From Patescibacteria group bacterium (lineage in GTDB: Bacteria; Patescibacteriota; CPR2; UBA1875; CAIMLA01), in the NCBI GenBank assembly GCA_041738615.1, contig JBGSPL010000001.1, forward strand, positions 158,564 through 222,563: a DNA stretch of 64,000 nucleotides, given 5' to 3'. Of the stretch, positions 10,318 through 44,783 are shown one piece after another (the stretch's first letter is position 1; each line of letters opens with the position of its first letter). Below the pieces are notes generated by a model, which had not been told where the DNA came from, did no database searches, and was given only the letters and a program-made list of their open reading frames with translations. Both the position numbers and the translations under genes were made by a program.

Positions 10318-10392
10318 TGGGGAGTCGCCAAGTGGTAAGGCACCGGTTTTTGGTACCGGCATTCGGGGGTTCGAGTCCCTCCTCCCCAGCCA
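10318..10392 (+). tRNA. tRNA-Gln (anticodon UUG)
   Basis: Cloverleaf read by eye: acceptor TGGGGAG/CTCCCCA, D-arm GCC-AAGTGGTAA-GGC, anticodon stem CCGGT/ACCGG with loop TTTTGGT, T-loop GGTTCGAGTCC, encoded CCA. Confidence 0.85.
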
Positions 10393-28759: not shown

Positions 28760-28789
28760 CTTGTCGACCCAATAAAAAATCTTCGATTT
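28760..28789 (-). terminator. Intrinsic terminator CTTCGA-GAAA-TCGAAG plus T-run upstream of rplJ, insulating rplJL from the island
   Basis: Minus-strand hairpin followed by ATTTTTTATTGG. Confidence 0.55.
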
Positions 28790-28998
28790 CTCGAAGACAC
28801 ATTGGAATAAAATTCATAAAGCTTATGCGTTTTACTCCCTCGGTAGCGGATTAAGCCCTGTGGGCAGCTACTGTCTCCGGAAATTACCTTTGTATTTTAG
28901 CAAATTATCAGGAGAAGGTCAAGTTCAATATCTAAAGGCGTTAGTGCCGGCGCCCTGTGTGGTTGCCGGCACTAACAGTACCCCTTGCGCCGTTGGCG

Positions 28999-29376
28999 CT
29001 ACTTCGGACGAAGCTGAATCTCATGGTTCAGAGTGTCCTTCATGGACTGAGGGACCGCGTCATACCATGCGCTGGTCGCCGAGATGTACGGTCCTCGAAG
29101 CTCAGTGGGGAGCAACTCGCTGGTCCAGAGACCGAGGTAGAGCTTGTTGCCGCCGGTGACGATAAGAGACTCGCGGCTCGGACGACCTGGATGATTGCTG
29201 GCGGCCTTCAGAGCTTGCCATTGGCGCAGCGCACTGCGCACGTTCGCGCGATAGACCGCATCCAAGACATTGGAATCGTGGGCGAGTATGGACTCCCCCA
29301 GCTGTTCGAGAATTTCTCCGGCCTCCAGAAGCCTTGTGGTGTCCGCCTCGACTTGCTCTTTGCTCCTTGTGTCCAT
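28999..29376 (-). CDS. Hypothetical protein (125 aa), high GC
   Basis: MDTRSKEQVEADTTRLLEAGEILEQL...; SD AGGAGAG before ATG 29376; longer overlapping ORFs on both strands judged artefacts of GC richness. Confidence 0.4.
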   Translation of the reverse strand: MDTRSKEQVEADTTRLLEAGEILEQLGESILAHDSNVLDAVYRANVRSALRQWQALKAASNHPGRPSRESLIVTGGNKLYLGLWTSELLPTELRGPYISATSAWYDAVPQSMKDTLNHEIQLRPK

Positions 29377-29509
29377 GACGACTCTCCTGTTCGTCGGGTG
29401 TTGGGCATAGTGGTACTGCGTCTTGCGACGCCTAAATATAACATTATTGCCATATGTGGTCAAGAAGACCGGGGCGTGAGCAAAACGCCACCTAGGACCT
29501 CGTGTGGGG

Positions 29510-29833
29510 TTACAGACCCTTTGCAGCCTGTATTTCTCGGCGCATCTGCTCGAGATCTGGTTCACTTCCCTTACAGAAGAATGCGCGACAAACCTGAGGT
29601 CGGCGAGAGTGGATACTGCACTTGCCCCCAGTGAGATATATGCAGCTCCCATCCGTATTCTGCGCGACTATATTGGCACCACACTCAGAGGCCGTAGGAA
29701 AATTATCAAATATATCGGCTTTTGGGAACATAGCTAAGTATTTGCCTGACCGATACTCCTTCTCATTCAGATTGATAAGAAATAGCCGGCAGCAAATTCC
29801 GCACGCGTCACAACTGTCTTCGGTATGTTTCAT
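29510..29833 (-). CDS. YkgJ-family Cys-cluster protein (CxxCxxCC putative Zn/Fe-chelating domain)
   Basis: 107 aa; CDACGICC...C...C..C pattern characteristic of PF03692-type proteins. Confidence 0.65.
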   Translation of the reverse strand: MKHTEDSCDACGICCRLFLINLNEKEYRSGKYLAMFPKADIFDNFPTASECGANIVAQNTDGSCIYLTGGKCSIHSRRPQVCRAFFCKGSEPDLEQMRREIQAAKGL

Positions 29834-29895
29834 GTATACATTCTAGCAGCAATCTCATAAACCTTGAATCAGTAGTTCAAAAGTGCTATATTACA

Positions 29896-30390
29896 TTGTC
29901 ACTATACTGTGGCGACGAACTCAAGGACGGGGGTGAGCATGTGGCTCATGAAGAATTGGTACGGAGTATCACAGAGGCGATGCAGGAATTCGAACGGCAC
30001 AACGTGCTTGGCGACAAGCTAAAGGCCCAGGCAAGAGCGGAGTACGTTACCGCCGATGATTCACTGCGGCATCGAGCCGATGATATGGCAAAACTGTATT
30101 GCCATATCATGTCACAAAGCCTAGCTACTGACGAGATCAGGCAATCAAGTGCCTACATCATCATTGTGTGCAGAAACCAGGAGCACGTTGATGTTGATCT
30201 CTGTCAGGCCATCCTAGTGCTCGCGGATGCCTCCGGGGAGGTCCTGAGCGACCTCGATCGAGCGGCACGGAAGACCGATTTCCCTAGTCTGCGTGCCATC
30301 TTCTGTACGCTTCAGGTGGAAGAGTCCAAAGCCGACTACTACGCCATGGCCATCATGAAACTCTATCGCAGCACAGGTTGCTGCAACTAG
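29896..30390 (+). CDS. Hypothetical protein (about 150-164 aa; TTG or GTG start)
   Basis: High-GC ORF, protein-like composition; no motif recognised. Confidence 0.4.
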   Translation: MSLYCGDELKDGGEHVAHEELVRSITEAMQEFERHNVLGDKLKAQARAEYVTADDSLRHRADDMAKLYCHIMSQSLATDEIRQSSAYIIIVCRNQEHVDVDLCQAILVLADASGEVLSDLDRAARKTDFPSLRAIFCTLQVEESKADYYAMAIMKLYRSTGCCN

Positions 30391-30527
30391 CGCTCAAAGC
30401 GCGCGCTCCGTACTATCCGTACGACGGCGCTGCACTTTGGGCGCCTTTCGTATATATTCAAAAGAAGACGCCCCCGTTGCAAGGAAACAACGAGGTTGTC
30501 TTCTTTGCCGCGGGGGCGGTAGTCTGG

Positions 30528-30968
30528 CTACTCCGTGGTCGGACAGCTCTCACAAGGCTGTGGACTCGTGACACTGAGCATCCCTGGAATGGGAGCTTTG
30601 TGGAGCACCCAACAAGCTAGAGTGAGGTGGAAGCATGGGTTCAGGTGTGAACAGAGCCCGTTTCCGTCATCGAAGTGACCAAGATCGAGCAGGCGCGTAA
30701 TAAGCTCAGAACGCCTGGTGATACTCAGAACCGGGATGAGCTCCCTTACCTTGGTCGTCACATACAACACGTGGTCAACCTGTGCAACAACTCTGGCATA
30801 GCGCCACTTGTCGAGGAGGGGGTCAAGGAGATCCCACCAAGGGTAACTGTCCTGTCGGACATACAGAAGTTCCAGCTCCTCGCGAAGCCTCGAAAGGTGC
30901 TTTTCGGCACCCGCCAAGAAGGCGTGAAGCTGTTCCTCAACGACTTCGCTTTCGTGCTCCTCAAGCAT
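30528..30968 (-). CDS. Hypothetical acidic helical protein (146 aa)
   Basis: MLEEHESEVVEEQLHAFLAGAEKHLSRLREELELLYV...; preferred over the overlapping plus-strand ORF 30675..31166. Confidence 0.35.
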   Translation of the reverse strand: MLEEHESEVVEEQLHAFLAGAEKHLSRLREELELLYVRQDSYPWWDLLDPLLDKWRYARVVAQVDHVLYVTTKVRELIPVLSITRRSELITRLLDLGHFDDGNGLCSHLNPCFHLTLACWVLHKAPIPGMLSVTSPQPCESCPTTE

Positions 30969-31045
30969 TGTTGCCCCTCTCCGAAGTATCGCAACAGTAG
31001 CTTACGACCGAGATTATACAACAGGGACTTAGTATTGTCTAGGGT

Positions 31046-32281
31046 CTATGAGTTACGTAGTACTCCATCTAGATTCCTAGCTTCCTCACTAGTCAGAAGT
31101 GACATTTCGTTATATCCGAGCAGACTGAGTCCCTCAATGTCACGGATACGAGATAAGGCCACATAACCCAGACCGTAGGTAAAAGACCTAGAAAGATCAA
31201 TTTCGGCATAGTCCAGGGTCATTCCTTGGCTTTTGTGGATTGTTATGGCCCAGGCCAAACGCAATGGTATTTGTTCTATCCAATCATCGGCGCCAATCTC
31301 ATCGGTCCCCCATCGCATTGGCGCGGCGAGCACAGTGTCTCCCCGGAATGTTTCTACTATCGGATATCCGGTATCTACATCAAAATCGGTTATGGTTCCC
31401 GTAGTTCCGTTCACGTAATTTTTGGTGGGATTGTTGAAAACAAACATTACAACAGCTCCTATTTTTAGCCTCAATACCTCTGGGGCTAGGCAACCCTTTC
31501 GCATCTGGGTGACGATATAACTGTCGCCACTATCTTTCATCTTAAATACATATTCCCTTTCAGTCAGAGCGCTTAACCGGTTTTCATTATAAGTGTCCAC
31601 ATTAACATTGTGTGTATATAGCTTAGTTGGGATTATAGTCTCGTCGAAAGGATACCTCAGCCTACTAGTAAGCAGTTCTACAGTATCTTCACTTACGCGA
31701 GACTCGCGTATCTCGTTGAGAACTTGGTGCAAAGAATTGTTTTCGGTTTGCCGATACTGTTTGTCCAAGTAGCAAACACTGAGGTCCATCTGCTGCCAGG
31801 CCGCGGAGAGATTCACAAAATTGCCCCGATTCTTTACCCTAGATACGGGAGGTAGCTGAAAAAAGTCACCGCAGAGAATCACTTGGAGTCCACCGAACGG
31901 TCCAAGCTCTGTACGGACTCTTCGACAAATCTCGTCTACAAGGTCTAGTTGATAATCGTGAAGCATAGAGACTTCGTCGATAATAAGGACGTCTGCTTCC
32001 TGAACTCGTTTTACCGCAGCCTTGTTCTTCGTAAACATCTTCTTGATTTCGCTTGGGGTCATGCGGTCCTTGATACCCATACCGCTCCATGAGTGAATGG
32101 TAACGCCACCCAGATGCGTTGCCGCGATACCGGTAGATGCCGTGATCCCCACCTTGATCTTGTTTTTGTTCAAATACGCTATGAATTGATTTAATAAATA
32201 GGTCTTGCCTGTGCCGGCCTGGCCTGTAATAAGAGCGTTTTTACCGCTTACTAGTATCTCGAAGGCTTCTTCTTGTGTCAT
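31046..32281 (-). CDS. PIF1/RecD-family SF1B DNA helicase
   Basis: 411 aa; Walker A GQAGTGKTYLL, Walker B LIIDEVSML, GDFFQLPPV, C-terminal ITIHKSQGMT; AAA_30 + UvrD_C_2-like arrangement. Confidence 0.85.
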   Translation of the reverse strand: MTQEEAFEILVSGKNALITGQAGTGKTYLLNQFIAYLNKNKIKVGITASTGIAATHLGGVTIHSWSGMGIKDRMTPSEIKKMFTKNKAAVKRVQEADVLIIDEVSMLHDYQLDLVDEICRRVRTELGPFGGLQVILCGDFFQLPPVSRVKNRGNFVNLSAAWQQMDLSVCYLDKQYRQTENNSLHQVLNEIRESRVSEDTVELLTSRLRYPFDETIIPTKLYTHNVNVDTYNENRLSALTEREYVFKMKDSGDSYIVTQMRKGCLAPEVLRLKIGAVVMFVFNNPTKNYVNGTTGTITDFDVDTGYPIVETFRGDTVLAAPMRWGTDEIGADDWIEQIPLRLAWAITIHKSQGMTLDYAEIDLSRSFTYGLGYVALSRIRDIEGLSLLGYNEMSLLTSEEARNLDGVLRNS

Positions 32282-32470
32282 TACATTATTATCCCTAGTT
32301 TCGGTTGCTAAAACTAGTAGACAGTCCCTCTTTGCAGGTAAATGTCATAATGCGCTATTCAAAACTCCGATTTAGTCGTATAATGCTCATGTTTTGCAGC
32401 TTTACAGACAGATAGTAGTTTACGTAGATTTCGGCGGCGATAATTGCCGAAAACAGGGAAGGAGCACTCC

Positions 32471-32644
32471 ATGTGCGGAGAAATACCGGCGGGATTTGGC
32501 CCGGGAGGAATTGGCTGGCTCGGGGATTGTCAGCCTGTCCAAGCTCCCAGTACAGCTGTACAGGGCGATACCACCAAGGCTAGTCTGGAGGTATCGGAGG
32601 CTTCGGCCCAAGACCCTGCCTCTAGCAGCGATACGCCGAGCTGA
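32471..32644 (+). CDS. Small acidic protein (57 aa) with strong SD
   Basis: GGAAGGAG-6 nt-ATG; MCGEIPAGFGPGGIGWLGDCQPV...; high GC; terminated by the hairpin at 32755-32795. Confidence 0.4.
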   Translation: MCGEIPAGFGPGGIGWLGDCQPVQAPSTAVQGDTTKASLEVSEASAQDPASSSDTPS

Positions 32645-32754
32645 CCCCCTCGATGCCCCCCACTCCCTATTTACTACTTTCTATCTACCGTCACTCAAGT
32701 GACAACCTGCACAGACTTGGCCGGATTCCACTCGTGGGACCCGGCCTAGTGCAT

Positions 32755-32795
32755 TAAAAAGGAGCGACCAAGCGGTCGCTCCTTGAGTATTTCTT
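32755..32795. terminator. Bidirectional terminator AAGGAGCGACC-AAGC-GGTCGCTCCTT
   Basis: Perfect 11-bp stem between convergent genes. Confidence 0.65.
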
Positions 32796-32798
32796 AGT

Positions 32799-33416
32799 CT
32801 ACAGTTTTACGTAAATCGTTTTGTTGCTCCAAAAGCTTGGTTTAAATACTAGCTTAAGGCCTGTGTCTCCCGCTGGGACCTCAAAAACCATTGTCCCTGT
32901 CACCTTACCGCCCGGTGCAAGGTTTCCAGAATTCAGCTTGTTCTCAGCGTCAACAAATGTCTCCGTTTTCAAGACGCCGCTACTGTCCTGAACCTGAAAA
33001 TCGAAGGTATTGAAACTCACCTGGTCTGTGCCGTTATTCTCAATACTTACCTCGACAAGAACATATTCTTTCCCTGACTCTGGAACCATATATTCATTGC
33101 CGGTGCTATAGTTTCGTGTTGCTTTAGTGACTCTTAGAATCTGCTTGTCTATACTCGCAGCTTCACCAACGATGTAATCTGATTTTGCAGCGGCAATCTT
33201 GGACTCAGTACTACTCTTACCCGTCGTGGTGGTAGTCGTTTTGCCGCCACCGGTGGCAGAGATAACTGCTCCAAGCAAAATGATACCCAGGATGACCGAG
33301 ATAACCTTATGTTGTACAAACCAATTTCTTAAATCTGCACCACAGTGCTTACATTTTACAGCGCCTTTTGCGATGTCCTCTTTACACTTTGGGCACTTTA
33401 CTACTTCTTCAGCCAT
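32799..33416 (-). CDS. Zinc-ribbon / single-TM / DUF4352-type beta-sandwich membrane protein
   Basis: 205 aa; CPKCK...CKHCG N-terminal zinc ribbon, TM helix, Thr-rich linker, C-terminal domain ...EYVLVEVSIENNGT...GTMVFEVP typical of DUF4352. Confidence 0.65.
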   Translation of the reverse strand: MAEEVVKCPKCKEDIAKGAVKCKHCGADLRNWFVQHKVISVILGIILLGAVISATGGGKTTTTTTGKSSTESKIAAAKSDYIVGEAASIDKQILRVTKATRNYSTGNEYMVPESGKEYVLVEVSIENNGTDQVSFNTFDFQVQDSSGVLKTETFVDAENKLNSGNLAPGGKVTGTMVFEVPAGDTGLKLVFKPSFWSNKTIYVKL

Positions 33417-33490
33417 GTATTCCCCTTTCGTGGTTAATATCTAGCCTGATTTTAGCCCTGCACTAGCATAAATGTCAAATATTAGCCCAG

Positions 33491-34072
33491 TTATTTAGCG
33501 CCGTACACTACGAACCCTTGGTGCCTAAGATCCTCGGCGAGTTTCTTCTCTGCTGTCTGGGCCTCTTCTTTGGTCTTAATAGCACTAGGTACCCAAAGAT
33601 CTGTTCGCAAGATGGGATTCTCGGCTTTGCGGACTTTTACAGATGAATTGTAACCTGAGATATGTTGTGCAAGCCGTATTTCTGGGTCGTATATAGACTG
33701 TCCCACGTAAACCTTTTTGGGATTATTATCGAGCTCGATGACGTACAGCTGCCAGAAACCCTTTTGAAGGTGTGAGCCAGCTATTACTTGATAGTTCTTT
33801 TCTGTAAGTATCTCTACTTGGTCCAAAACGAGCTTCTTTGCTTCGTCTTCTGTGTTTATTGGCTTGATTTTAGCTGATTTTTCAACCAGCATTGCAGGCT
33901 TCTTGCCATGACGAACACTGCGCACAAACTTTTCAAAACACTTTTGGATGTGATCTTGGCTATACTGAATAAATAGCTTTCTGGAGCCCTTATTGATCTC
34001 GAAAATATATATCTGATAAGGAATGATCGCCGAATCGGGGCTGATATCTAGATTGGGAGTAACTTCTTTCAT
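33491..34072 (-). CDS. GIY-YIG nuclease-domain protein with uncharacterised N-terminal domain
   Basis: 193 aa; ...WQLYVIELDNNPKKVYVGQSIYDPEIRLAQHISG... fits GIY-(10-11)-YIG-...-R-...-H; AT-rich host-like composition. Confidence 0.6.
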   Translation of the reverse strand: MKEVTPNLDISPDSAIIPYQIYIFEINKGSRKLFIQYSQDHIQKCFEKFVRSVRHGKKPAMLVEKSAKIKPINTEDEAKKLVLDQVEILTEKNYQVIAGSHLQKGFWQLYVIELDNNPKKVYVGQSIYDPEIRLAQHISGYNSSVKVRKAENPILRTDLWVPSAIKTKEEAQTAEKKLAEDLRHQGFVVYGAK

Positions 34073-34200
34073 GAGTGTATTATAACGTACTTTTGTGCTT
34101 AATAATAGGTAAACCTACAGTTACGAAAGGCGCCCAGTAGTGCAGCGCCAATCTTGCGGATAGGCGTGCGCTCTGGGCGCTTGGTGACCAACTAGCCGTG

Positions 34201-34671
34201 TTACGAAACCGGTTCGGTGGCGTATTGCCGGGTTGGCTTTGGCTCTTCGTAGAGAGGGTTCTCGATGCGGCCGCCGACGACGGCCTGCTTGTAGGTGTCC
34301 TGGTCGACGATGATGGTGAAGTCGAGCTTGTCCCAGTATGTGGGCTCGTCGTCGCCTGGGTCGGCTAGTACAGCGTAGCGCGCACGGACAAGTAGCTCGA
34401 AACAGGTCGGTTCCCCGAGCTCCCACGGGTAGGATGAGAGTAGAGATAGGTCATTTCCAAGTGGGCCGTTCGTGAACGAAAGCGCTGGCGCGAGCTTCTC
34501 GACGACCGTGACGTACCGGTGGCTCTTCTTGATTGCCACCTTCTCGTTTCTATTGTCGATCGCGATGGCGCAGATGAACAAGACGATAATAATGACCACC
34601 AGTGCGACGATGAGGGCCAGGAAGCCCCCAGTAATCGCAAGTGCCCATTGCCACCAAGCCCAATACGGCAT
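34201..34671 (-). CDS. Hypothetical N-terminally membrane-anchored protein (156 aa), high GC
   Basis: SD GGGGAGGGG before ATG; TM LALIVALVVIIIVLFICAIAI then soluble domain. Confidence 0.5.
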   Translation of the reverse strand: MPYWAWWQWALAITGGFLALIVALVVIIIVLFICAIAIDNRNEKVAIKKSHRYVTVVEKLAPALSFTNGPLGNDLSLLSSYPWELGEPTCFELLVRARYAVLADPGDDEPTYWDKLDFTIIVDQDTYKQAVVGGRIENPLYEEPKPTRQYATEPVS

Positions 34672-34740
34672 GACCCCTCCCCTGACGAAGTGACCTTACG
34701 CCTTAGTATAGGCAAAGATTACAAATAGTCAAGAGTATAT

Positions 34741-34790
34741 ACGAAAAGAGTCCGCGCCGGAGGCGCATAGCGCAGACTCCTTCGCGGACC
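34741..34790 (-). repeat. Copy 1 of ~50-bp palindromic terminator-like repeat
   Basis: ACGAAAAGAGTCCGCGCCGGAGGCGCATAGCGCAGACTCCTTCGCGGAC; minus strand forms a long imperfect hairpin followed by TCTTTTCGT; sits just 3' of gene 34797..35804. Confidence 0.7.
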
Positions 34791-34796
34791 GTAGTG

Positions 34797-35804
34797 TTAG
34801 GACCCGATACTTGACGTGTCTTCGTCATCCTTAGACAGCTCGATACCCTCTTCTTCCTCGTAGTGAATGTCGATCGGTCCTGGCATGTATGAAGCAATCA
34901 CCTGGCAGATAGCGACATCGAGGCCGTCGTCCTGCCAATCCTTGCCTGGACTACGAACAACAACGATACCGCCGAGGATTTCACCGACGAGAACGAGTCC
35001 GGGAATCTGACCTATCTCGAGCCGTATCTCTGGTAGAGCCAAGCTAGAAGCTGCGGGTCGACCCAAATCGTCGAAATCTCCACCGAATGGATATGGGTGA
35101 TAAGGAGGCAACCCGTAGACAGTGTAACGGTGGACGTTCTCGGCTAGCGCGTCGATGTAGATGAAAAGCAATGGGTTGTCTCCGTTGCGCTTCTCTCGAA
35201 CGAGGCTGTCGATTTCGCCAACCAGTACTTTGACCTTCTCTGAGACATCAGCGGAACCGATGAACCCAACGGCTTTGTCGGCTGGGTCTGACGTCTCGAG
35301 GTCTTCCCACAATTCCTCAGAAGTGAGACCTGAGAGCTCGCGACGAAACTCGTCGACAATGTCATGTGTCGCGAGCTCTTGTTTGCGCTGACGCGCGATT
35401 TCTTCAGTCACAGCTTCGTCAAGACCGACGAGGATAGAGGTGATGAACGCCTCTAGCTCGATAAGCTCATCGGTAGCCACCCGGCTCTTTGCCAACATTC
35501 GTTTGTAGGTGAATTGAGCTTGCCGCGCTTCCTCGGTAAGATCAGAGTGATTCTTCTTGTACTCCTGGGCAATGCCCTGGATCCACCTCGACCGGCGCAT
35601 CTTGAGAAAGATCTCACCGGTATCGTCGGTGAGTTCCTCGGCCGGTAGGATGAGCATCCTCTCGAGCAACACCATCACTGACGAAAGGTTCGGCAGTAGT
35701 CTCTCGGGCTCTTCGTAGCCTACGACCTCAAAGTCATGAGCGACGGCGGCGAGGCAGTCGATCACGTCTCGCACCCATGCTGTGCTGGTGTCATGGAACG
35801 ACAT
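34797..35804 (-). CDS. Hypothetical acidic protein (335 aa), high GC
   Basis: SD GGAGGGAG-6-ATG; no recognisable catalytic motif; flanked on both sides by the palindromic repeat. Confidence 0.55.
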   Translation of the reverse strand: MSFHDTSTAWVRDVIDCLAAVAHDFEVVGYEEPERLLPNLSSVMVLLERMLILPAEELTDDTGEIFLKMRRSRWIQGIAQEYKKNHSDLTEEARQAQFTYKRMLAKSRVATDELIELEAFITSILVGLDEAVTEEIARQRKQELATHDIVDEFRRELSGLTSEELWEDLETSDPADKAVGFIGSADVSEKVKVLVGEIDSLVREKRNGDNPLLFIYIDALAENVHRYTVYGLPPYHPYPFGGDFDDLGRPAASSLALPEIRLEIGQIPGLVLVGEILGGIVVVRSPGKDWQDDGLDVAICQVIASYMPGPIDIHYEEEEGIELSKDDEDTSSIGS

Positions 35805-35890
35805 GACCGGCTCCCTCCGTCGGTTTTCAAGGTATCGTTGTCCTTGCGGGTATTATACATAAGGCCACTAGATATACAAGCCCCATAAAC

Positions 35891-35940
35891 GAAGGGAGTC
35901 CGCGCCGGAGGCGCATGGCGCAGACTCCTTCGCGGACTCG
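35891..35940 (-). repeat. Copy 2 of the palindromic repeat (about 3 mismatches to copy 1)
   Basis: ACGAAGGGAGTCCGCGCCGGAGGCGCATGGCGCAGACTCCTTCGCGGACTC just 3' of gene 35971..36288. Confidence 0.7.
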
Positions 35941-35970
35941 TGTTGCCGTACACACGGCTGAAGGGGATGT

Positions 35971-36288
35971 CTACAGACAGAATCTCTCCGGAACCTTGAA
36001 GCGGAAGGGAGAGAATTCCCTCTTCGGTGCAGGACGATAGTAGCCTATACAAGGGCTTTCGTCCTCTGCTTCAATCAGAACGTAGAGCTCCTGCCCGTGT
36101 AGCTGCTTCTTGAGAAACTCCAGAACTGGGCCTATCTTGCCTCGATTACCCTTGGGTTTGTAGTAGAGGCAGAAGTAGAGAATCCCTTGGTACCGCCTCA
36201 GTACTACCTTGCCGTTCACCCACTGGCGAACGATTTCTGTCACCTCTTCGGGTGTCAAGGGACGGTTGTTCGTCTTCCTTCTTCCCAT
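35971..36288 (-). CDS. Hypothetical basic protein (105 aa)
   Basis: SD GAGAGGGGAAAC-ATG; MGRRKTNNRPLTPEEVTEIVRQW... Confidence 0.45.
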   Translation of the reverse strand: MGRRKTNNRPLTPEEVTEIVRQWVNGKVVLRRYQGILYFCLYYKPKGNRGKIGPVLEFLKKQLHGQELYVLIEAEDESPCIGYYRPAPKREFSPFRFKVPERFCL

Positions 36289-36423
36289 GTTTCCCCTCTC
36301 GGCGTTCGGAACTATACAACAAGCGTACTAGTTTGCACCTCCATTTGTCGTAGGTGACGCTTGTGGATTCTGTAAGGTACTCTCATCGGTATACCCAGAT
36401 GTCGGGAAACGGGCAGCTGACCC

Positions 36424-36750
36424 CTAGGAAACCAGGGCGGCGGCGATGAAGGCGAGCAGCTCGCTCGGCTTGGACGAGTGAACGTGGACTTCCTGAAGGC
36501 CACTCGGCCGACGGTCGATGACCTTCACCCCGACGACAGGGGCTTCCTTGCCCGGTGTGCAGGCGTGCAGCTCAGTGGCCCTGCGGTAGGGCCTTGCGGG
36601 ACGCATCGGCTTCTCGGTAGGCTTAGCGCTCTTGTGCGTAATGCGGGCGGTTGGGTCAGGACAGTCCTCATGAGCGAGGATTGCCTGGACGTCACCGAGA
36701 AGCGGAAAGGCCTTCTGGCTGTGCTTTTCGCGCTGAGATCGAGTTGACAT
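36424..36750 (-). CDS. Hypothetical protein (108 aa), high GC
   Basis: SD GGGGAGAAC before ATG 36750; first gene after the island's right-end promoter. Confidence 0.45.
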   Translation of the reverse strand: MSTRSQREKHSQKAFPLLGDVQAILAHEDCPDPTARITHKSAKPTEKPMRPARPYRRATELHACTPGKEAPVVGVKVIDRRPSGLQEVHVHSSKPSELLAFIAAALVS

Positions 36751-36845
36751 TCGTTCTCCCCTGTCGATGCCTACAAGACTGGTACTTAACCTATACTCCC
36801 TTCGGCATGATGCAACCGCATCCTTGGATCCCTTAGAATGCTAAG

Positions 36846-36875
36846 ATTATATCCCCTAGATAGGGCAAAACGCAA
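36846..36875 (-). promoter_or_regulatory. Candidate promoter TTGCGT-18-TATAAT with a palindrome (CCCTA-GA-TAGGG) in the spacer
   Basis: Minus-strand -35/-10 read directly; positioned ~90 nt upstream of gene 36750 and reading leftward into the island. Confidence 0.35.
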
Positions 36876-36880
36876 GGTGT

Positions 36881-37885
36881 CTAGATATCCCAGGCAAAAC
36901 CATTCCCAAAGTGGCCTTGCGAGGCAGTTTGCCGATACACTGGGTCCCTGAGTCCCAGACTTGATATTATCCCATCCGGTGAAAGGTCGTACTCACCGTC
37001 TATGAGAAGATTAATTTCTTTGTGTCCGTCAATTATGGCAATGGCCATTACTGGCTGGACGACACCAATGCTGTAAGCGAGTTTCACCAGCACCTCATTA
37101 CAGTTCAACTTTCTAAGATAATCAACTGCGATGCGCCGTGCCATATAGGCAGCACTACGGTCGACCTTGGTAGCATCTTTGCCGCTATAGCAACCGCCGC
37201 CAATTGGTATTTGAGGTCCATAATTATCGACAGCTAATTTCCGACCGGTAAGACCGGTATCAGCCGTAAAACCTCCGATAGAAAAGTCCCCGGTCGGATT
37301 TATATGAATATGTATTGGCTTTAAAGTTTCTGCCAACTCGCGAAGCGGAGCAAAATCCTCACCGGGTTGGTGTTGCGCACTTATGACGACGGTATCGACA
37401 CTACCATCCTCGGCCAAGGTAACCTGACTTTTGGCGTCAGGGCCAAAACCTACCGGCAAAGCGTGGATTAGCTTACGCGAAAGGTAAAGTCCTTGGGGTA
37501 TCATCGCTTCATTCTCGTTACAAGCATAACCAACCATAATCCCCTGATCTCCTGCCCCACCAACATCAACACCCTGTGCGATCTCTGGACTTTGATGAAC
37601 GACATTCGTAAATACCTGTAGAGTGTCGTTGTAACCAATTACTGTATAAATATTTTGTACAATTGAGGTCAAATCAAAGTGTGCCTTCGAAGTCACTTCG
37701 CCGGTTATATATATCTGCCCATGTCCTCCCATAACCTCTACTGCCACTCTGCTCCCGGGGTCCTGCCGCAGATATTCATCCAAGATAGCATCTGATATCT
37801 GGTCACATACTTTGTCTGGATGTCCAGCGCTCACACATTCTGCAGTTCGCATTCCCTTGTTTTTAAAATAGTCATTTTCGCTCAT
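36881..37885 (-). CDS. metK: S-adenosylmethionine synthetase (short form)
   Basis: GHPDKVCDQISDAILD, GAGDQGIMVGYA, DAKSQVT, GGGCYSGKDATKVDRSAAY; SD AAGGAGA-6-ATG at 37885. Confidence 0.9.
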   Translation of the reverse strand: MSENDYFKNKGMRTAECVSAGHPDKVCDQISDAILDEYLRQDPGSRVAVEVMGGHGQIYITGEVTSKAHFDLTSIVQNIYTVIGYNDTLQVFTNVVHQSPEIAQGVDVGGAGDQGIMVGYACNENEAMIPQGLYLSRKLIHALPVGFGPDAKSQVTLAEDGSVDTVVISAQHQPGEDFAPLRELAETLKPIHIHINPTGDFSIGGFTADTGLTGRKLAVDNYGPQIPIGGGCYSGKDATKVDRSAAYMARRIAVDYLRKLNCNEVLVKLAYSIGVVQPVMAIAIIDGHKEINLLIDGEYDLSPDGIISSLGLRDPVYRQTASQGHFGNGFAWDI

Positions 37886-37907
37886 TATGCTCTCCTTTTG
37901 TTTTAGC

Positions 37908-37936
37908 AATCAAAAATCTCTTTCCACCGAAAGAGA
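37908..37936 (-). terminator. Expression-platform intrinsic terminator of the metK riboswitch
   Basis: Minus strand TCTCTTTC-GGTG-GAAAGAGA followed by TTTTT, 25 nt before the metK SD. Confidence 0.65.
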
Positions 37937-43727: not shown

Positions 43728-44783
43728 TTACTCCTTAGGGTCGGCACAAGCATCTGGCTTTTTTTCTTCAAACCCACCTATATTGGCAATCTCGGCCTTA
43801 ATTGCCGCGTGAGATTCGTAGCCAACAAGCTCGATGTCCTCGAACTTAAAATCGTCAATATTTTTGATCTCAGGATTTAGCTTTACTGTCGGAAAGGCAA
43901 AAGGTTCCCTGGATAACTGCTCGTTCACCGCATCAAAATGGTTGCTATAGATGTGAACGTCGCCAAAGGAATGAACAAATTCACCGGGTTCTAGGCCTGT
44001 GACTTGCGCCACCATCAGAAGTAGAAGGGCGTAGCTGGCGATATTGAAGGGTACTCCCAAAAAGGAGTCTGCACTACGCTGATACAGGCCCAAATTTAGC
44101 TTATTACCATCCGTGACTGCAAACTGGAAAGTGGTGTGGCAAAATGGTGGTACTTGACTTTTGTTCTTTTCTGAGGCCATGGCATAGATAAAATCGGGAT
44201 TCCAAGCAGAGACGACATAGGATTTCCGAAAAGGCTTGTCTTTTAGCCCCTGGATTACCCATCCGAGCTGGTCTATCTCTCTGCCGTCGGATGCAGGCCA
44301 ACGTCGCCACATTCTACCGTAAATGGTAACAAGGTCACCCCACTTAACCACAAATGGGTCATCTGCAGGCAGGGACTTGAGCTTGGCAATAAACTCTTTC
44401 TGTTCGAGGTCGTTCCCTCGGTCGTTCTTCACGCAATGCATGTGGTAGTGTTTCCATGCCCATTCGTCCCAAATATGGACATCGTGGTCTACTAGATACT
44501 TGATATTTGAAGATCCAGATAGGAACCAAAGTAGTTCCTCGATGATTCCCCTCATAAAAACTTTTTTGGTAGTGAGGACAGGGAGTCCTTTACTCAGATC
44601 GAATCTTATCTGACGACCAAAGACAGAGCGAATAAATGGTGGCTGCTCTCCCTTTGCGGCGTACTGGTCGCGGACCTCCTGATTAAAAAACACTTCCTTG
44701 TCGGATCCGTTATCTAAAATATCCTGCAAAAGGTTTAGATATTGATATTCTGGGTGTTTCTTCTCTGCCATGATTCGCTCCAA
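43728..44783 (-). CDS. thyA: Thymidylate synthase (ThyA, long form)
   Basis: 351 aa; ...[14 protein letters not shown]..., catalytic Cys region [17 protein letters not shown]. Confidence 0.9.

Follow-up and report, generated by a model that had tools for sequence, protein, structure and literature searches.

The window, a 64,000-nt stretch of DNA, carries four open reading frames at positions 31046-34072, all confirmed at the coordinates given in the first-pass annotation. This segment lies in an 8-kb variable stretch of the chromosome that extends from metK to the rplJ leader. The order metK ... rplJ-rplL-TGT is kept in the related loci L003 and L005/6; the gene content in between differs. 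The features of the segment, and those nearby that bear on its interpretation, are as follows:

29510-29833, minus strand: CxxCxxCC protein, YkgJ-like, Zn/Fe-binding (PF03692, E 7.5e-9)
31046-32281, minus strand: Pif1-family helicase, 411 aa, SF1B, a bare core of domains 1A/2A/2B
32288-32322, minus strand: Pif1 promoter region, with GTCTACTAG at 32314-32322 and GATAAT at 32288-32293
32471-32644, plus strand: divergent small gene, 57 aa, GC 0.60
32683-32784, strand not assigned: terminator block, consisting of the DUF4352 hairpin and a 73-nt conserved hairpin region
32799-33416, minus strand: DUF4352 membrane protein, 205 aa, with a zinc ribbon, a transmembrane (TM) segment and DUF4352
33449-33478, minus strand: promoter of the DUF4352 cassette, TTGACA-18-TAAAAT, 11/12 matches
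33491-34072, minus strand: GIY-YIG protein, 193 aa, two domains
33494-33763, minus strand: catalytic GIY-YIG domain, residues 104-193
33770-34024, minus strand: degenerate pseudo-GIY-YIG domain, residues 17-101, a duplicate of the C-terminal domain
34079-34084, minus strand: -10 box TATAAT of the GIY-YIG gene, 6 nt 5' of the ATG
34737-34789, minus strand: 53-nt terminator hairpin repeat, with a second copy at 35885-35937

Judged from their sequences, the Pif1, DUF4352 and GIY-YIG genes give strong family matches and are not chance reading frames; Pfam, PDB-sequence and fold matches bear out all the domains that the annotation had named (helicase, DUF4352 with zinc ribbon, GIY-YIG). The compositional contrast that it described is real as well: GC3 is 0.45-0.48 in the helicase, DUF4352 and GIY-YIG genes, making the helicase and the GIY-YIG gene host-like, whereas the small gene is GC-rich.

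The Pif1 helicase and its conserved partner

The helicase matches the PIF1 profile (PF05970) with an E-value of 5.5e-38 and 131.2 bits (cut-off 25.9), and the 2B domain (PF21530) with 25.6 bits against 23.9. A sequence search against PDB matched the yeast and human PIF1 cores with E 2.6e-67 and 9e-66, with residues 7-396 of the helicase aligned to residues 13-400 of the PIF1 chain, a full-length core match, and Bacteroides Pif1 was matched with E 4e-48. The translation contains Walker A (GQAGTGKT), Walker B (LIIDEVSM) and a signature-like stretch, DEICRRVRTELGPFGGLQVILCGDFFQLPPV; the Pif1 signature motif is located between helicase motifs II and III. The protein is assigned to the Pif1 family of SF1B helicases, with 5'-3' unwinding predicted. 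It shares with ScPif1, human PIF1 and Bacteroides BaPif1 the full-length core (E 1e-67 to 1e-48), PF05970 together with 2B, the Walker motifs and the signature-like motif, but, unlike these known enzymes, is a minimal core of 411 aa that has no accessory domains and no N- or C-terminal extension. Homologues number 8000 at E <= 1e-30; among the 120 matches listed, identity is at least 51% throughout, and many are named at the source as proteins of Patescibacteria or candidate phyla. The counterpart in L003 is 87% identical at the amino acid level, with 56/29/248 substitutions at the three codon positions.

The promoter of this gene is strongly conserved: the columns of GTCTACTAG and GATAAT are invariant across 8 Saccharibacteria Pif1 upstream regions (alignment A4), and these 8 loci carry different upstream genes, yet the same promoter. 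The GATAAT box lies 6 nt before the ATG, and the Pif1 mRNA is probably leaderless. We also considered GTCYACTAG as an SOS-like regulon motif; the window contains one other copy, which is no more than expected by chance.

On the 3' side, the recurring neighbor is the CxxCxxCC gene, which directly follows Pif1 in L012/13 (with an 8-nt overlap) and in L019, is one gene away in L011, and is detected by tblastn in L003 and L006; in the window, two inserted high-GC genes separate the two. In some relatives, rarA comes after the CxxCxxCC gene, and the Pif1 neighbors in L011, L012/13 and L019 are CxxCxxCC, rarA, dprA and topA. Most likely, Pif1 represents a housekeeping helicase core passed on by vertical descent, which would unwind DNA at replication forks or in secondary structures; its conserved partner is the small CxxCxxCC metal-binding protein, joined in relatives by rarA. 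The combination of this partner, often with rarA, and the GTCYACTAG...GATAAT promoter is a peculiarity of Saccharibacteria Pif1; we found no literature naming both Pif1 and Saccharibacteria, and the association could guide the study of bacterial Pif1 function.

A GIY-YIG protein with one degenerate and one intact domain

PF01541 matches residues 107-183 of the GIY-YIG protein with 30.3 bits against a gathering score of 22.6, and the protein has the GIY-YIG alpha/beta fold, with the I-TevI catalytic domain as the best structural match, so the original assignment survives both the profile search and the fold comparison. There is no PDB sequence match to the C-terminal domain even at E 10. Across 22 sequences, Y122, G124 and R133 of this domain are invariant, and Y110, H137 and E175 are conserved in at least 90%.

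The N-terminal domain of about 100 aa, which the annotation had listed as unknown, is not a new domain. Alignment of the N half with the C half by hhalign (alignment A2) gives a probability of 98.8% and E 6e-17 over 82 columns, compared to E >= 0.095 for all of 20 column-shuffled control alignments, and in the AF2 model, the N-terminal domain has the same beta-beta-alpha...beta topology as the C-terminal one. At the aligned catalytic positions, it carries F34, Q36, C45, F49 and V82, with no second Tyr, Arg, His or Glu. Because these positions are replaced, the copy is predicted to be inactive, and we conclude that the N-terminal domain is a degenerate, apparently catalytically dead GIY-YIG duplicate.

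The C-terminal domain resembles the I-TevI catalytic domain, the UvrC N-terminal domain, SLX1 and UPF0213 in the fold and in the Tyr, Tyr-x-Gly, Arg, His and Glu residues; the difference is that its partner is a dead copy of the same fold rather than a DNA-binding, RING or other domain. Domain-profile searches detected no NUMOD, IENR1 or HTH DNA-binding module, and the sole other match was a sub-threshold one to DUF5836 (E 0.034). No relatives were found in phages, plasmids or viral contigs, and a literature phrase search retrieved no descriptions of tandem or duplicated GIY-YIG proteins. CMoRE / PD-T4-3, a type IV restriction enzyme made up of a single GIY-YIG protein, has its GIY-YIG domain at the N-terminus and a domain that senses 5hmC at the C-terminus (PMC12923530); compared with CMoRE, the present protein has the reverse domain order, 13% identity and no PADLOC match, and shows no sign of modification sensing, a feature of CMoRE.

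The -10 box is kept in L003, L006, L008, L015 and L018 (alignment A5), suggesting that the gene has its own promoter and that its mRNA would be leaderless. More distant family members sit among restriction-modification (RM) and GmrSD-like genes: the relative in L018 lies in a GmrSD context, that in L022 near a type III-like MTase, an REase and a GmrSD-like gene, that in L023 near a type IIG RM, an MTase II and a GmrSD-like gene, and that in L008 near an AbiO/Nhi-like helicase and an HNH gene. This link to defense is guilt by association, from 4-5 contexts, and in the window, there is no methyltransferase or other defense gene within +/-10 kb. With several members among restriction and GmrSD-like genes, the family nevertheless becomes a testable phage-defense candidate in Saccharibacteria, the immune repertoire of which is poorly known.

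The protein is probably a single-chain pseudo-dimer, in which the dead N-terminal copy packs against the live C-terminal copy; such a pseudo-dimer would have one active site, making it a natural candidate for a nicking enzyme. Its most likely role would be that of a stand-alone enzyme that nicks or cleaves foreign DNA, while the dead domain would bind DNA or act as a scaffold. One possibility is that the tandem nuclease is a type IV-like or nicking enzyme, with the dead domain reading the DNA.

An inserted DUF4352 cassette

From N- to C-terminus, the DUF4352 protein comprises Zn_ribbon_3 (residues 6-29), a hydrophobic stretch seen by hydropathy (about 38-56), a Thr-rich linker (KTTTTTTGKSS) and DUF4352 at residues 81-200 (Pfam, E 2.7e-27). 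The DUF4352 domain is predicted to be extracytoplasmic, with one TM helix upstream. A PHROG search matched phrog_806 (E 1.8e-31), and homologues occur in temperate phages; there are no close relatives in viral contigs.

The gene is absent from L003 and L014. A strong Shine-Dalgarno sequence, AAAGGGGAA, precedes its ATG, and a terminator scan places its hairpin at 32759-32784. The adjacent 73-nt hairpin region, 32683-32755, is conserved with L003 (80% identity in blastn, window 32755-32683 vs L003 10582-10655; alignment A3), where it lies directly 3' of the GIY-YIG stop; in the window, the cassette has entered precisely at the junction of the GIY-YIG stop codon with this conserved terminator. 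From this arrangement, we classify the gene as a self-contained single-gene insertion, specific to this genome, with a predicted promoter and terminator of its own; it was probably inserted recently as a promoter-ORF-terminator cassette.

In Mycobacterium smegmatis, the multicopy phage resistance protein Mpr (MSMEG_1236) starts with a short segment in the cytoplasm, crosses the membrane once by a TM helix and continues through a low-complexity linker into DUF4352 at its C-terminus (PMC9262609, PMC12596739). Our protein likewise proceeds from a single N-terminal TM helix through a linker of low complexity to DUF4352 at the C-terminal end, and agrees with Mpr in size (~205-215 aa) and in the order of parts, a likeness by domain layout alone; the DUF4352 domain is also found in temperate-phage proteins. 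Unlike Mpr, it carries a CxxC...CxxC zinc ribbon at the N-terminus, and its host, a Saccharibacterium, is outside Actinobacteria, making it a lead to Mpr-like proteins beyond that group. The ancestry of this Mpr-like protein probably lies in temperate phages, and its role may be to stop infecting phages at the cell envelope.

Independent transcription units or one system

The GIY-YIG gene lies upstream of Pif1 in 4 related genomes, with 52-81% GIY-YIG identity. As in the window, the two occur together in L003, L005/6 and L014, in the last case 61 nt apart, so the pairing noticed in the first-pass annotation does recur elsewhere. Pif1 is found without GIY-YIG in L011, L012/13, L019 and L020/21, and relatives of GIY-YIG are found without Pif1 in L008, L015, L018, L022 and L023/24. 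In the window, the two genes are separated by the DUF4352 cassette, a terminator, the divergent gene and the conserved Pif1 promoter; an operon, with tight conserved spacing and no terminator or promoter between its genes, is not what we observe. The adjacency is probably one inherited arrangement: every co-occurrence belongs to the same clade, so that together they may trace back to one event in evolution. The adjacency in 4 genomes and the 61-nt spacing in L014 make a functional link within that clade possible. On balance, we favor the view that the interval consists of independent transcription units of different origin and is not one system.

The first-pass annotation had instead pointed to a helicase-nuclease defense system or mobile element, and a new anti-phage system or element formed by the helicase, the nuclease and DUF4352 now appears highly improbable. 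Helicase-plus-nuclease pairs are common in defense systems, the locus is variable, DUF4352/Mpr is a reported phage-resistance factor (PMC9262609), and Pif1 has PADLOC matches to the helicase models RecD_like, PDC-S68 and PDC-M16A (E 1e-16 to 1e-20). These matches, however, reflect generic, partial SF1 similarity to much longer proteins (models of 468-1273 positions), true PIF1 scores far better, and Pif1 is the only match: at E <= 0.01, no PADLOC model matches the GIY-YIG protein, the DUF4352 protein or any of the unassigned genes. Moreover, DUF4352 is absent from all relatives carrying the GIY-YIG/Pif1 pair, every gene is served by a promoter and terminator of its own, the pair is split by a divergent gene, and the Pif1 context elsewhere is housekeeping and in several loci lacks GIY-YIG. 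As for a mobile element, no integrase, transposase, relaxase, flanking tRNA or target-site duplication was seen near the locus; the window has a single tRNA, at 10318, the flanking genes are housekeeping, and the repeats found are internal terminator hairpins. A helicase beside a nuclease is not automatically a defense system. With this false lead removed, the helicase stands as part of the core gene set of candidate-phyla bacteria, transcribed from a conserved promoter of its own and accompanied by a conserved partner other than the nuclease.

In eukaryotes, nucleases cooperate with Pif1, and the pair could form a two-gene replication/repair module, with an SLX1/UvrC-like structure-specific nuclease and a 5'-3' helicase acting on stalled forks, flaps or G-quadruplexes. 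We regard this as unlikely given that Pif1 orthologues of 73-76% identity lack GIY-YIG in 4 locus types, that the GIY-YIG relatives in L008, L015, L018, L022 and L023 lack Pif1 and stand beside RM or GmrSD-like genes, that the pair has been split in 3 genomes by the insertion of unrelated genes along with a terminator and a divergent gene, and that the co-occurrences are confined to the one clade. It is also highly improbable that GIY-YIG represents a free-standing homing endonuclease gene, selfish like the T4 seg genes and parked by its conserved target pif1. The best structural match to I-TevI, the patchy distribution across several different contexts and the intergenic sites beside highly conserved genes (pif1, tig) would fit such an element; what argues against it is a dead GIY-YIG copy in place of a NUMOD, IENR1 or HTH module, a host-like GC3, the lack of phage or viral relatives, the location of other members inside RM islands, and a divergence that tracks Pif1 (81/76/52% vs 87/78/74%), which fits vertical descent.

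Returning to the independent units, we suggest, quite tentatively, that the dead + live tandem GIY-YIG proteins of 175-200 aa might be an undescribed single-gene anti-phage nuclease family, present in Saccharibacteria and unclassified metagenomic contigs, and that the metK-rplJ interval might be a defense/accessory hot spot fed by a GC-rich pool. What is new at this locus is the small uncharacterized nuclease family in which GIY-YIG is fused to an apparently inactive copy of itself; on the tentative reading, the hot spot would combine this nuclease, the Mpr-like protein and a changing set of GC3-rich promoter/Shine-Dalgarno/terminator cassettes.

The small divergent gene and the GC-rich genes of the interval

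The small divergent gene, called as a gene in a Logan contig, has a counterpart of 48 aa in the same position in L003, 46% identical, and the two share the N-terminus MCGE..AGF..W.G.CQP. Substitutions between them lean to codon position 3 (21/14/31). In the product, the first 22 aa are conserved and include two Cys, and the acidic tail, rich in Ser/Thr, is variable; a ribosome-binding site, GGAAGGAG, and a promoter-like site at 32401-32430 were identified, and there is no Rfam match. Taken together, these features suggest that it is probably a real gene, and it counts among the several GC3-rich, family-less genes that have accumulated in the hot spot. About 8 such genes without family matches, the small gene included, fill the metK-rplJ interval, and GC3 in its neighbors is 0.62-0.74 overall (0.62-0.70 on the rplJ side, 0.62-0.74 on the metK side):

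28999-30968, mixed strands: rplJ-side high-GC genes, with the CxxCxxCC gene among them
28999-29391, minus strand: gene of ~130 aa, rplJ side
29896-30390, plus strand: w164, rplJ side
30528-30968, minus strand: w146, rplJ side
34201-36750, minus strand: metK-side high-GC genes
34201-34671, minus strand: w156, metK side, TM-anchored
34797-35804, minus strand: w335, metK side
35971-36288, minus strand: w105, metK side
36424-36750, minus strand: w108, metK side

The rplJ-side genes are protein-coding by their codon-position substitution pattern against L003 and belong to no Pfam, NCBIfam, PADLOC or PHROG family. On the metK side, each gene carries a promoter-like site, a strong Shine-Dalgarno sequence and a terminator hairpin; w108 shares 90% and w105 83% identity with its L003 counterpart, with substitutions at position 3, and w335 and w156 are absent from L003. 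No matches were found for w108 and w146 in viral contigs, or for w335 in phages or plasmids. The two copies of the 53-nt terminator repeat, 92% identical, flank the w335 cassette; L003 has a single copy. Modular shuffling, suggested in the annotation from the composition of the small gene, holds in extended form: the region between GIY-YIG and Pif1 has taken up two inserts, the small gene and the DUF4352 gene.

Several other explanations of the GC-rich segments were rejected. They are not rRNA, introns or one large structured RNA: the L10 leader is the sole Rfam match, both at gathering thresholds and at E <= 1, and the substitution bias toward codon position 3 against L003 also speaks against RNA. 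Recent transfer from actinobacterial hosts does not account for w335, which has no homologue among 5.8 billion proteins. An integron-like cassette array is discounted as well, there being no integrase and the 53-nt repeats being ordinary intrinsic terminators, each a GC-rich stem with a T-run, that are not attC-like. Finally, a 15-nt perfect inverted repeat (30438-30452 / 34122-34136) that might have marked the borders of an inversion or transposon represents similar terminator tails (GGCGCC-TTTCGTA), and the gene orientation around it is the same in L003.

The stretch between metK and the L10 leader

The feature lies within an 8-kb stretch bounded by the ribosomal protein L10 leader and metK (36881–37909), across which GC content is mosaic. 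The flanks of this stretch are syntenic with loci L003 and L005/6 of related genomes, and the gene content in between is different. The rest of the window consists of housekeeping genes (DnaB, DnaX, tRNA synthetases, TGT, rplJ/rplL with the L10 leader, metK, SHMT, FolD, DHFR and ThyA). In many bacteria, rplK and rplA are found immediately upstream of rplJ-rplL; here, what adjoins the L10 leader upstream is a variable island instead of rplK and rplA. All four ORFs reported in the first-pass annotation are found where it placed them, and its gene descriptions are borne out by profile matches to PIF1, DUF4352, the zinc ribbon and GIY-YIG.

Features of the stretch
28765–28898, minus: L10 leader (RF00557, 64 bits), upstream of rplJ-rplL
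29510–29833, minus: CxxCxxCC protein (PF03692, YkgJ-like)
31046–32281, minus: Pif1 helicase, 411 aa (PF05970 PIF1, E 5.5e-38, and Pif1 2B domain)
32288–32322, minus: Pif1 promoter region (GTCYACTAG, ~20 nt, GATAAT, 6 nt, ATG)
32471–32644, plus: small divergent gene, 57 aa, best placement, with ribosome-binding site GGAAGGAG
32759–32784: terminator hairpin of the DUF4352 gene
32799–33416, minus: DUF4352 protein (zinc ribbon, one hydrophobic helix, Thr-rich linker, DUF4352)
33478–33449, minus: DUF4352 gene's own promoter, 11/12 matches
33491–34072, minus: GIY-YIG protein, 193 aa (PF01541 at residues 107–183)
34737–34789 and 35885–35937: 53-nt GC-rich hairpin terminators, 92% identical, bracketing w335, a high-GC gene of 335 aa

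A perfect 15-nt inverted repeat, TGGGCGCCTTTCGTA (30438–30452, plus; 34122–34136, minus), flanks a 3.7-kb segment from the high-GC gene w146 to the GIY-YIG gene, and both copies are terminator tails. A separate, independent Logan assembly from the same sample (SRR28170474_6082) stops at about window position 30422, adjoining one copy, so that the repeat may break assemblies.

A tandem GIY-YIG protein

The GIY-YIG assignment holds, with the PF01541 match above the curated cut-off. The search for close homologues yielded just seven. Against 1.84 billion cluster representatives, a profile gave 765 matches at E ≤ 0.001, most of them single-domain GIY-YIG proteins of roughly 95 aa covering the C-terminal half only, and the two-domain layout (175–200 aa) was present in about 20 clusters. 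An alignment of 22 sequences shows no variation at Y122, G124 and R133 and at least 90% conservation at Y110, H137 and E175, so that the C-terminal domain looks catalytically competent.

The N-terminal domain, described in the first-pass annotation as unknown, is instead a degenerate GIY-YIG copy. In a confident AF2 model (pLDDT 88, pTM 0.78), it has the same beta-beta-alpha...beta topology as the C-terminal domain, and profile-profile comparison of the two halves gave a probability of 98.8% (E 6e-17, 82 columns), against E ≥ 0.095 in 20 column-shuffled controls. Where the C-terminal domain has Y122, G124, R133, H137 and E175, the N-terminal copy has F, Q, C, F and V. Judging from these sequences, it is a predicted dead duplicate, and the protein a putative single-chain pseudo-dimer with one predicted active site. 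Phrase searches of the literature found no description of a protein with tandem or duplicated GIY-YIG domains.

Given its neighbors in several loci, this tandem family recurs in restriction and defense neighborhoods: an acetyltransferase and then GmrSD in L018; a MazG-like gene, an AbiO/Nhi-like helicase and HNH in L008; a type III-like MTase/REase pair on one side and a GmrSD-like gene on the other in L022; and, following the GIY-YIG gene in L023/24, a type IIG RM enzyme, a type II MTase and a GmrSD-like gene. In L015, there are a few small ORFs downstream of tig. The putative dead/live tandem family, with its tie to restriction islands, is a new, modest finding. The islands with distant members of the family are dense (L008 10695–13606, L022 1–16540, L023 1088–9963); across them are type III-like and type IIG RM genes, GmrSD-like/HEC-06-like genes, the AbiO/Nhi-like helicase with HNH, the MazG-like gene, DUF2779 and NOV_C proteins, and several uncharacterized neighbors.

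A TATAAT box is located 6–7 nt 5' of the GIY-YIG ATG in the window, L003, L006, L008 and L015; L018 has TATATT instead, further upstream. Just 5' of the -10 box, a conserved AAGCACAAAA element is present in four loci (window 34073–34110, minus; L003; L006; L018), a candidate for a regulator site or for an extended promoter.

Pif1 and its partners

From one end to the other, the helicase can be aligned to the solved cores of yeast PIF1 (E 2.6e-67) and human PIF1 (9e-66), and to Bacteroides Pif1 (E 4e-48); Walker A, Walker B and a Pif1 signature-like stretch are readable in its translation, and its 411 aa include no accessory domain. Homologues are very numerous (8000 returned at E ≤ 1e-30), many of them named as Patescibacteria or candidate-phyla proteins, and all 120 matches listed are at least 51% identical.

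Conservation of the 45 nt 5' of Pif1 extends to every one of the eight loci aligned (window, L003, L006, L011, L012, L014, L019 and L020), with GTCYACTAG and GATAAT invariant. Because this conservation holds whatever gene precedes, Pif1 has its own promoter, and its transcript is probably leaderless. GTCYACTAG is possibly a conserved regulator site; it occurs once more in the window, at 44487, no more than expected by chance.

Orthologues of 73–76% identity are arranged as dprA-topA...Pif1-CxxCxxCC-rarA in L011 and L012/13, as Pif1-CxxCxxCC in L019, and as metK...Pif1...rarA in L020/21; in L012, there is an 8-nt overlap between the CxxCxxCC gene and the Pif1 stop. In the window, two inserted high-GC genes separate the pair. 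Pif1 is a core gene with partners other than GIY-YIG, and its conserved CxxCxxCC(-rarA) pairing is among the modest new points. Across Saccharibacteria, the ~107-aa CxxCxxCC protein (L011 11484–11804, L012 11232–11573, L019 11264–11584) is the partner conserved downstream of Pif1, often with rarA/mgsA following it, and may serve bacterial Pif1 as an accessory, metal-binding subunit.

Independent units or a joint system

The first-pass annotation pointed to a helicase-nuclease defense system or mobile element, and the co-occurrence it set as a check was found: four genomes (window, L003, L005/6 and L014) have the GIY-YIG gene upstream of Pif1. The two are separated by a 48-aa divergent gene in L003, by three small genes in L005/6, and by just 61 nt, with the Pif1 promoter inside, in L014. 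Identity declines in parallel (GIY-YIG 81/76/52%, Pif1 87/78/74%), a pattern that fits vertical co-inheritance of a single arrangement, as far as sequence identity can tell. That Pif1 and the GIY-YIG protein form a repair module is a live but rather unlikely alternative, given that the Pif1 link of the tandem family is confined to one clade and that, by tblastn, no GIY-YIG relative lies within 10 kb of the 73–76% identical Pif1 orthologues of L011, L012/13, L019 and L020/21. The suggested defense system or mobile element is not supported. Four independent units are favored because the feature has neither an integrase or transposase nor a tRNA or target duplication, PADLOC gave no defense-model match beyond generic SF1 similarity, and the GIY-YIG protein has no relatives among phages, plasmids or viral contigs.

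The DUF4352 protein

L003, L005/6 and L014 all lack the DUF4352 gene. Its position in the window is precisely between the stop codon of the GIY-YIG gene and a hairpin region of 73 nt; in L003, that region comes right after the stop. Mpr (MSMEG_1236) of Mycobacterium smegmatis, reported as a membrane-bound phage-resistance factor, consists of a TM helix (33–50), a low-complexity linker and DUF4352 (83–211), a domain it shares with temperate phages (PMC9262609, PMC12596739). The window protein resembles Mpr in this layout and has an additional N-terminal zinc ribbon. Its phage homologues come from Bacillus, Lactobacillus, Brochothrix and Mycobacterium phages. A putative Mpr-like protein, by this analogy, in a Saccharibacterium is new, if modest.

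A pool of GC3-rich genes

For the high-GC parts, rRNA, introns and large structured RNA were ruled out: Rfam matched the L10 leader only, and substitutions relative to L003 are biased to codon position 3 (positions 1/2/3: w108, 6/7/32; w105, 7/11/34; w146, 54/50/99; w164, 58/50/92), with a weaker signal in the small gene (21/14/31). These parts are protein-coding rather than RNA genes. GC3 is 0.62–0.74 in the high-GC genes and 0.53 in the small gene, compared to mostly 0.33–0.49 in the flanking housekeeping genes and 0.45–0.48 in Pif1, DUF4352 and GIY-YIG. None of the high-GC genes, nor the small gene, has Pfam, NCBIfam, PADLOC or PHROG matches; for w335, a set of 5.8 billion proteins contained no homologue, and no phage, plasmid or viral-contig relatives of w335, w108 or w146 were found.

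The gene sets vary between genomes: at this locus, L005/6 carries different GC3-rich genes, and L019, from a 30%-GC Saccharibacterium, has GC-rich accessory genes beside Pif1. This accessory pool at the metK-L10 leader hot spot is a further new, modest point. Saccharibacteria genomes of 30–46% GC carry such clusters of no-family genes, with GC3 ~0.15–0.4 above core genes (window 28900–31000 and 34100–36870; L003 9000–14500; L005 6500–8100; L006 1500–8000; L019 2465–4843 and 9056–9814).

Every gene of the island comes with its promoter-like site, strong Shine-Dalgarno sequence and hairpin terminator. The 53-nt hairpin is single-copy in L003, and w335 looks as if it were a promoter-ORF-terminator cassette added by recombination at the terminator. 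In 28957–29652, the mechanically called ORFs of 217 aa (minus) and 225 aa (plus) overlap one another as well as the CxxCxxCC gene. Judged against L003, the real gene is the C-terminal part of the 217-aa ORF, ~130 aa (28999–29391; GC3 0.70).
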